Source: Escherichia phage Chuche. From it: 34,514 bases of DNA. Below, one piece after another: positions 1-1,087 of this stretch (its first letter is position 1; each line of letters begins with the position of its first letter). Made by a program: the position numbers and the translations under genes. The stretch lies in sequence record PP925824.1; one strand, 5' to 3'. The notes below the pieces were generated by a model. That model was given only the letters and a program-made list of their open reading frames with translations, searched no databases and was not told the DNA's origin.

Positions 1-7
1 AAAAAAT

Positions 8-26
8 AGCAGGCGAATCGCCTGCT
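8..26 (-). terminator. Rho-independent terminator downstream of the 31-765 gene
   Basis: Perfect 8-bp stem agcaggcg/cgcctgct with 3-nt loop at 8-26; on the minus strand it is followed by a T-run (complement of a1-a6). Confidence 0.5.
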
Positions 27-30
27 TTAA

Positions 31-765
31 TTAATTGCGGCTGGATAGTTTAAATTGTTTAATTTTTGCTTTTATGGTGTTTTTCAGCGAGTACGACGGC
101 ACCCATTTTAAAGCAACTTGCCAAGGACGAGGCGAGCCATGAAAACATACTATTCTGGCGTTTTCAGGCACTGACCCATTGGCCAAACCATCATGTAGTT
201 CAGCATTGAAACCAATCATTTTAGGTGTGGCAATATTTGCTTTATAACTCACAATAAATCCGGGAAGAACATCCTGCCAACGTTCTGCGTCAGGATATAT
301 TTCACTGATAAATCCCTGATCACCGTGATAAGGAGGTAATTTATTCCTGGACATTATCTGTTCAGCATTATCCTTGAAAGCATTCCAAGCACGGTATTTT
401 TCCTTTGCTGGAATAAACATAATACCAGAAGCAGCGGGAGCATTTTCTTTACCGACGCATGAGAAATCGGTAAGCATTGTCATATTCTGCAAATTGGTGA
501 ATTCATGTAGATCGCCCGTAATAACGGTATCGATATCTATATACAGTATATCTTCCTTTCCAATAACAGGGTGTTCTGGATTGAATAATTCTATTTTCGC
601 CCACCATCCCGGCCAATTATAAAGAAGCGGCGCAGTTTCTACTCCCTCAATGTAATCTGCGTCTGTTAAACATACTGAACGAATACCCCTGATTTGCTGG
701 TGTAGCCATTGGGCATGCTTGGGGGTGAAATCTTTGCTACAACGAAGGACTGAAACAACCAGCAC
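31..765 (-). CDS. Hypothetical cargo protein, possibly a DxD-type glycosyltransferase-like enzyme; function unknown
   Basis: 244-aa ORF; GTG start at 765 with upstream SD (taggagt); contains YIDIDTV (DxD-like) motif; AT-rich relative to flanking phage genes; sits where P2 carries Z/fun. Confidence 0.5.
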   Translation of the reverse strand: MLVVSVLRCSKDFTPKHAQWLHQQIRGIRSVCLTDADYIEGVETAPLLYNWPGWWAKIELFNPEHPVIGKEDILYIDIDTVITGDLHEFTNLQNMTMLTDFSCVGKENAPAASGIMFIPAKEKYRAWNAFKDNAEQIMSRNKLPPYHGDQGFISEIYPDAERWQDVLPGFIVSYKANIATPKMIGFNAELHDGLANGSVPENARIVCFHGSPRPWQVALKWVPSYSLKNTIKAKIKQFKLSSRN

Positions 766-1050
766 TACTTACTCCTAAATACACAACTGTAGATATATAA
801 CTCGCGTTTATGATATCACAAACAAAAGCATAAAACTTACCCACATCAGTAGAGTCATATAGTCTCTGTCAATATAATGAGTGACTATTTCACTAAGCTT
901 CCACCGAAACAATAGACGTAGAGTTAAGCTATTAATCACTCTAACAAGGTAGAGATATTGATTTTGCTATACCGACGTTTTGTCAGTACTTCCCCAGCAA
1001 GACACAACATGAAGTCGGCACAGTTTTTGAAGTTATTTAAGGAACAGAAA

Positions 1051-1080
1051 AACCGCTAATCTGATCATTAGCGGTTTTTG
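1051..1080. terminator. Bidirectional hairpin terminator after gene U
   Basis: Stem aaccgctaat / attagcggtt flanked by an A-run (1048-1052) and T-run (1076-1080); lies just downstream of the minus-strand U stop. Confidence 0.5.
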
Positions 1081-1087
1081 CGTTAAA

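Follow-up and report, generated by a model that had tools for sequence, protein, structure and literature searches.

The hotspot that follows gene G in phage P2 and AT-rich conversion genes are textbook knowledge. In P2, gene G and a terminator are followed by fun(Z) on the opposite strand, whose 528-aa product blocks T5. Better-known systems that change the surface of a lysogen are the Gtr systems, which comprise three genes, are membrane-embedded and bactoprenol-linked, and act in the periplasm on the O-antigen. Glucosylation of the O-antigen by GtrABC and its acetylation by Oac are prophage-borne sugar modifications that alter LPS and phage adsorption. A further set of accessory phage genes is represented by PmgQ of P1 and HdmD of P7. 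P1 pmgQ lies in the "pmg" gene block beside the ppp phosphatase gene; it is transcribed in lytic growth, and P1 can form plaques without it (PMC10695390). The label "glycosyltransferase" for this family already exists in RefSeq and in PHROGs.

Here we describe a member of the same family in Escherichia phage Chuche. The window, that is, the whole stretch of 34,514 nucleotides that was analysed (PP925824.1), is a circularly permuted P2-like genome of the P88 type (Xuanwuvirus, Peduoviridae), and its bases 1088-9000 share 94-95% DNA identity with P88, PhiR44_2, Shae_phiSM and P884B11. The gene, orf244, encodes 244 amino acids and resembles fun(Z) in where it lies relative to the fibre-assembly gene, in being convergent with that gene and sharing a terminator with it, and in its high AT content, whereas the two proteins are unrelated. 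Unlike pmgQ, orf244 stands alone, as an AT-rich cassette that occupies the post-fibre slot of a P2-like phage, and the functions of PmgQ/HdmD and of orf244 are all predicted only. The outcome that we propose for orf244 is the same as that of GtrABC and Oac, but in contrast to Gtr the predicted agent is a single soluble nucleotide-sugar GT-A enzyme, with relatives in core (waa) clusters.

The tfa/gpU slot and its cargo

The features of the locus are given in Table 1. The original prediction, made from the letters of the window, described an AT-rich gene that is compositionally distinct and has its own Shine-Dalgarno sequence (AGGAG) and terminator hairpin, and all of this is borne out. The GC content of positions 1-1087 is 39.5%, which falls in the lowest 0.04% of all segments of 1087 bp (mean 52.8%, sd 4.8), and the GC3 of orf244 is 0.347, compared with 0.55-0.68 in the backbone structural genes. 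The composition does therefore differ from the backbone, and no confident homology to a virion structural protein was found. A high AT content is also found in the fibre-assembly gene (GC3 0.36), in a macro-domain ORF at 33036-33905 (GC3 0.39) and in the 3′ part of H, so the low-GC foreign island extends from about 32.5 kb through the window ends to position 1087 and is larger than the stretch that was first noticed.

Table 1. Positions of orf244, its signals and the genes and terminator that flank it in the window
Feature	Position	Strand	Evidence and remarks
orf244	31-765	-	244-aa ORF; predicted GT-A fold, GT8-like glycosyltransferase (PHROG 1962; PDB profile matches)
Shine-Dalgarno AGGAG	772-776	-	read from sequence; 6 nt upstream of the orf244 GTG
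orf244 rho-independent terminator	1-26 (stem 8-26)	-	terminator scan; 8 bp, 6 GC pairs, loop 3, then ATTTTTT
Non-coding upstream region	766-1047	-	282 bp, AT-rich; 35% GC measured over 766-1087
FI-FII-E-T-U tail operon terminator	1048-1079	-	terminator scan; 13-bp stem; marks the right-hand edge of the slot
gpU tail protein	1088-1582	-	Pfam Phage_P2_GpU, E = 9e-39; backbone gene, right flank of the slot; 94-95% DNA identity to P88 and relatives
Tail-fibre assembly protein (G/Tfa)	33930-34514	+	PHROG 105, E = 6e-88; its end coincides with the window end; backbone-side left flank of the slot

Translation of orf244 starts from GTG (765-763), and the family consensus agrees with the N-terminus from residue 1. 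The hairpin at its other end starts 5 nt past the stop codon and is probably a bidirectional terminator, common to the convergent fibre-assembly gene if the genome is circular. The non-coding region upstream presumably holds the orf244 promoter. A strict sigma-70 scan of the minus strand upstream of orf244 gave no promoter, and a relaxed scan gave a single candidate, a weak extended -10 element (TGATATCAT, 810-818). A 43-aa ORF at 808-939 has no Pfam match and was treated as spurious. Positions 766-1060 have no relatives in phages or E. coli by blastn, positions 1-1100 have no megablast match in phages, and an Rfam scan of 1-1300 yielded nothing credible. At the protein level, 597 homologues were found in the first search, and the dN/dS of orf244 relative to homologues of 86% and 90% identity is about 0.07, indicating purifying selection. 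A copy at about 83% identity is present in only 12 of 5426 E. coli genomes, mostly borne on plasmids, and an FkbM methyltransferase gene is found close to the plasmid copy in E. coli.

On the right, similarity to the P88-type prophages of E. coli picks up again at 1040-1049, i.e., at the gpU terminator. The FI-FII-E-T-U operon (window 1088-7933) is on the minus strand, divergent from D (6692-7933, plus strand), and is inverted relative to P2; this inversion is the usual P88-type layout and no assembly artefact. Because the operon is opposite in strand to the V-W-J-I-H-G operon, the fibre-assembly gene and gpU converge. Owing to the inversion in the P88 lineage, orf244 also has the same direction as the tail operon, and it could thus be transcribed late by read-through of the gpU terminator. 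The original prediction had called the site equivalent to that of Z/fun. This is correct on the G side, where P2 has G, the terminator and fun(Z), but on its other side the slot borders on the 3′ end of gpU and not on the FI promoter.

The convergence of orf244 with the fibre-assembly gene across the window ends, also predicted at the outset, is supported by relatives. In these the order is tfa (plus strand), a bidirectional hairpin, the cargo gene (minus strand) and gpU (minus strand), from which we infer the adjacency of tfa and orf244 across the joined window ends; the exact junction sequence (window end plus window start) was, however, not found in the viral contigs searched. E. coli E110019 likewise has a hairpin between converging tfa and cargo genes, and P2 has one between G and fun(Z).

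The slot is confirmed as a true variable site, as had been proposed. It holds a DNA invertase with alternative fibre segments in P88, Shae_phiSM and the E. coli L3_E36 prophage, and it is empty (about 250 bp) in PhiR44_2. In the prophages of E. coli E110019 and O157:H7, which share the same H-macro-tfa module, it is occupied by a minus-strand gene for a hexapeptide "serine acetyltransferase" with the same hairpin layout on its flanks. We have also considered whether the glycosyltransferase (GT) gene travels as a fixed module with one fibre tip, and dropped this idea, since the identities of fibre tip, Tfa and GT vary independently of one another. Their adjacency thus suggests that a permissive insertion site has been reused rather than that the genes co-evolve as a pair.

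Protein family and predicted fold

Residues 1-233 of orf244 match positions 1-229 of the 230 in the profile of PHROG 1962 ("glycosyltransferase", moron category; E = 1.4e-84), and P1 PmgQ and P7 HdmD are 36-37% identical to orf244 over 93% of its length (tblastn, E = 1e-34). The family is large, with about 4,860 clusters at 50% identity in a profile search. Its members are named "hypothetical protein" at NCBI in nearly all cases and otherwise carry the generic name "glycosyltransferase". Searches of Pfam, NCBIfam and the PDB with the single orf244 sequence gave nothing significant, and none of the homologues listed has a precomputed Pfam domain. The Pfam GT8 model (PF01501, Glyco_transf_8) scores 11.8 bits, below its cutoff of 24.3 (E = 0.17), and matches the DxD region alone.

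A profile of 65 sequences, by comparison, matches only GT8 proteins in the PDB, namely Skp1 alpha-GalT (E = 1.6e-5) and glycogenin (from E = 3e-4). The AlphaFold2 model of orf244 (pLDDT 95.1, pTM 0.92) shows a Rossmann-like alpha/beta/alpha GT-A fold, with a basic helix predicted at the C-terminus (227-243), and the closest relatives of orf244 by both profile and structure are GT8 enzymes. Identity to GT8 enzymes (LgtC, glycogenin, the Skp1 alpha-galactosyltransferase Gat1/GlyT1, RfaI/RfaJ) is 13-16%; orf244 is shorter than these and is without the GT8 C-terminal domain. When the family profile was compared by hhalign with a canonical RfaJ-like LPS GT8 protein, the DxD segment was the only part aligned, at a probability of 14%.

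The conserved residues of orf244 are K57, D77-x-D79, G148-D149-Q150 and C207-F-H209-G-x-P-R213-P-W215, and those that are invariant or near-invariant across the 65 homologues are K57, D77, D79, G148-D149-Q150, H209, R213, P214 and W215. The motif YIDIDTV, which the original prediction had singled out as DxD-like, is present; its D77 and D79 are invariant and align with the DxD of glycogenin and Gat1. In the profile alignment to GT8, K57, the DxD and GDQ fall on known catalytic residues, and the C-terminal G-x-P-R-P-W falls on G-x-x-K-P-W. The canonical metal-binding His of GT8 (H-[FY]-x-G-x-x-K-P-W), on the other hand, aligns with the conserved C207; the invariant H209 follows two residues later, and R213 takes the place of the Lys. 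The nucleotide-sugar transferase fold that had been suspected from the motif is thus upheld by profile and structure comparison as GT-A and GT8-like. Since the Pfam GT8 threshold was not reached and the C-terminal motif is variant, we call the family GT8-like rather than a member of GT8. The annotation of orf244 as an ordinary kind of prophage cargo is well supported. The variant motif is a modest addition to what was known, and so is the connection of the family with waa clusters and WaaZ-like partners that is described below.

Genomic contexts of the homologues and candidate acceptors

We gathered 160 related loci and clustered their neighbouring genes, which gave three classes of context. 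Class (a), at ≥55% identity to orf244, consists of enterobacterial prophages in which the GT gene directly follows the fibre and Tfa genes (eight independent groups), among them the lambdoid phage Chlobot and myovirus prophages of E. fergusonii and E. albertii. Some of these loci also encode a 151-aa protein together with a hexapeptide acetyltransferase; the latter shares 55% identity with the acetyltransferase in the slot of E110019. In class (b), at 41-47% identity, the GT gene stands immediately before a WaaL-type ligase gene (six independent groups). Class (c), at 28-43% identity, comprises environmental proteobacterial phages with the GT gene between capsid and connector genes, often accompanied by FkbM methyltransferases and paralogous GTs. 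HK97-like phages at L106, L115, L034, L040 and other loci have GT homologues, often at least two paralogues, between the major capsid and head-tail connector genes, and are candidates for virion glycosylation.

Class (b) is best illustrated by a waa cluster of Klebsiella/Raoultella, in which the homologue (P0063, 46% identical) lies 7 nt upstream of waaL (Wzy_C) and co-directional with it. The cluster reads coaD, GT2, waaA, GT2, two GT4, GT9, a 320-aa gene, the GT homologue and waaL, and on its other side are WaaZ_KDO_III, two GT9 (heptosyltransferases) and hldD. These homologues are resident bacterial genes with no phage nearby. The 320-aa protein immediately upstream of the homologue and waaL (L170, 7922-8884) has no Pfam domain and may be another core-biosynthesis enzyme. 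Similarly, a homologue in Pectobacterium (55%) lies in an LPS-core island with a Kdo/WaaP kinase, a sulfatase-type transferase, GT8+GT8C, a WaaZ-like gene and GT25. Fusions of the family GT to MptE/WaaZ-like domains exist, and sugar-tailoring genes are frequent neighbours of the homologues, including FkbM methyltransferases (16 groups) and hexapeptide acetyltransferases. In a rough neighbour-joining tree, the orf244 clade is sister to a clade that contains the waaL-linked group and P1 PmgQ. The closest homologue (90%; L004, 7162-10923, Logan contig of SRR29908406) is found in a different setting, a chromosomal island of the type-III-effector kind rather than an LPS locus. This island encodes NleF, a weakly HopF/AvrPphF-like protein, a Ppp-type metallophosphatase and two unannotated proteins (329 and 263 aa), and it looks like a prophage remnant because of the Ppp-type phosphatase neighbour, as in P1.

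These contexts, with waa clusters and WaaZ-like partners, suggest that the assembly of the LPS core or an envelope glycan is the business of the family, and make lysogenic conversion the best reading of orf244. We hold it somewhat probable, at a little better than even, that orf244 brings about lysogenic conversion as a single gene, its enzyme transferring a sugar onto the host LPS core or a closely related envelope glycan. It would be a horizontally acquired "moron" in the fibre-assembly/gpU slot, with a predicted soluble or peripheral-membrane product of the GT-A fold related to CAZy GT8. By analogy with GT8 the enzyme would depend on a metal and a nucleotide sugar and would be retaining; it would work on the cytoplasmic side of the inner membrane, placing one hexose-type sugar onto the LPS core oligosaccharide or a close envelope glycan. 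The changed cell surface would bring about lysogenic conversion and alter the adsorption of LPS-dependent phages, and a late role in infection might mean that fewer progeny are lost on debris. orf244 itself is phage-borne and not inside a waa cluster, whereas homologues of 41-55% identity are in waa-type clusters by waaL, waaC, waaF and WaaZ-like genes. From the latter it appears that orf244 works like the LPS core glycosyltransferases; membership among them is not supported. Counted against LPS core modification are the weak RfaJ-like profile comparison, the fact that no family member is characterised, the Pfam GT8 score below its cutoff, the capsid-side contexts, the lytic transcription of pmgQ, the shared direction of orf244 and the tail operon, the lack of a convincing sigma-70 promoter in the scans and the effector island of the closest homologue.

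Two other acceptors are each considered unlikely. The enzyme could glycosylate the phage's own virion proteins, the tail fibre or others, during morphogenesis, as some phages do with their capsid and tail proteins. The direct adjacency to fibre and fibre-assembly genes throughout class (a) and the position of distant members, which lie between capsid and head-tail connector genes and are often accompanied by an FkbM methyltransferase and further GT paralogues, would fit such a role, as would the placement of orf244, which follows closely on the tail operon in the same direction. Some GT8 enzymes are known to use protein-linked acceptors (glycogenin, Skp1 GalT, GlyE), and transcription of P1 pmgQ in lytic growth is what virion glycosylation would lead one to expect. 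A terminator, however, separates gpU from orf244, which has its own Shine-Dalgarno sequence, its own terminator and a foreign composition. The slot is dispensable, and sister phages that share the fibre module have unrelated cargo there; the identities of GT and fibre tip vary independently, the bacterial homologues are resident genes of waa clusters without a phage nearby, and pmgQ is non-essential. It is also improbable, to a similar degree, that the acceptor is another envelope polysaccharide (O-antigen, enterobacterial common antigen, colanic acid or capsule), which would still be lysogenic conversion. Neighbours of the WaaL/Wzy_C, FkbM methyltransferase and hexapeptide acetyltransferase types also occur in O-antigen and capsule pathways, and an FkbM methyltransferase is near the copy on the E. 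coli plasmid. The bacterial contexts that are resolved best are nevertheless core (waa) clusters, which contain waaC, waaF, waaA, waaQ-like and WaaZ-like genes; they are not of the wb* or cps kind.

There is still less reason to expect a protein of the host or of a competitor as the target, as it is for GT-A toxins and NleB-type effectors, whether the enzyme served as an effector or in defence or anti-defence; we consider this very unlikely. It would be in line with NleF, the HopF/AvrPphF-like protein and the metallophosphatase in the island of the 90% identical homologue, and the position is a known hotspot type for defence cargo of P2-like phages (PMC9122126, which covers the other hotspot). 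That island looks like a prophage remnant as well, the family is spread over bacteria without a T3SS and over marine and soil phages, similarities to toxins are far weaker than those to GT8, and a PADLOC search with orf244 gave no match at E ≤0.1. The original prediction had named conversion and defence together as plausible; the homologue contexts favour conversion, while defence has neither a PADLOC match nor other supporting evidence. Glycosylation of the phage DNA against restriction is the most improbable of the acceptors and hardly to be expected. All that speaks for it is that DNA glucosyltransferases are known from phages in general; the annotated ORFs (part of the window) include no gene for hydroxymethyl-base synthesis, and the homologues in waa clusters speak against a DNA acceptor.

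If orf244 does edit the LPS core, lysogens would differ in their sensitivity to LPS-dependent phages and possibly in resistance to serum or antimicrobial peptides, which bears on the prediction of host range in phage therapy. Core editing would also provide the first functional handle on a large family without a Pfam or NCBIfam model, the long-unassigned P1 pmgQ included, of which unannotated members sit inside the waa clusters of Klebsiella/Raoultella. A wider proposal, which we put forward tentatively and with more doubt than belief, is that the PmgQ/orf244 family is an unrecognised class of single-gene cytoplasmic LPS-core modifiers, carried beside fibre genes by temperate phages as unrelated as P2-like, lambdoid and Mu-like phages and P1 to mask or edit the core-oligosaccharide receptor. 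Such a class would do at the level of the core what seroconversion does to the O-antigen. For LPS it would be analogous to Llp/Cor, the receptor-blocking genes found beside receptor-binding genes, and it would supply P1 pmgQ with a function.

Other genes of the Chuche genome

Several other genes in the window are of note in their own right. The macro-domain ORF (289 aa, plus strand; ADP-ribose-binding or hydrolase; Pfam E = 3.7e-18) lies between the fibre gene H and the Tfa gene, and the order H-macro-tfa is also found in prophages of E. coli E110019, O157:H7 and O55:H7. Its product might counter an ADP-ribosylation-based defence or be associated with the virion. A 268-aa gene at 18591-19397 (minus strand, 40.6% GC) adjoins Q/cos, the site of the tin/old hotspot in P2; its product has a DUF3800 domain and gives a PADLOC match to PDC-M04A, a candidate defence protein (E = 2.6e-35). 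At 17084-18043 (plus strand) there is a gene for a ParM-type plasmid-segregation actin (StbA_N, E = 6e-82; ParM_N, E = 5e-68), so the prophage may be able to persist as a plasmid, which is reported of about a quarter of the P2-like phages (PMC9122126). The C-terminal 208 residues of H (32413-33039), which form the fibre tip, are 79% identical to those of the lambdoid siphovirus Chlobot, and Tfa is 64% identical to the Tfa that adjoins the GT homologue there. This likeness is a mosaic exchange of the receptor-binding end between myovirus and siphovirus. The GT homologue of Chlobot, 56% identical to orf244, is convergent with its own tfa.
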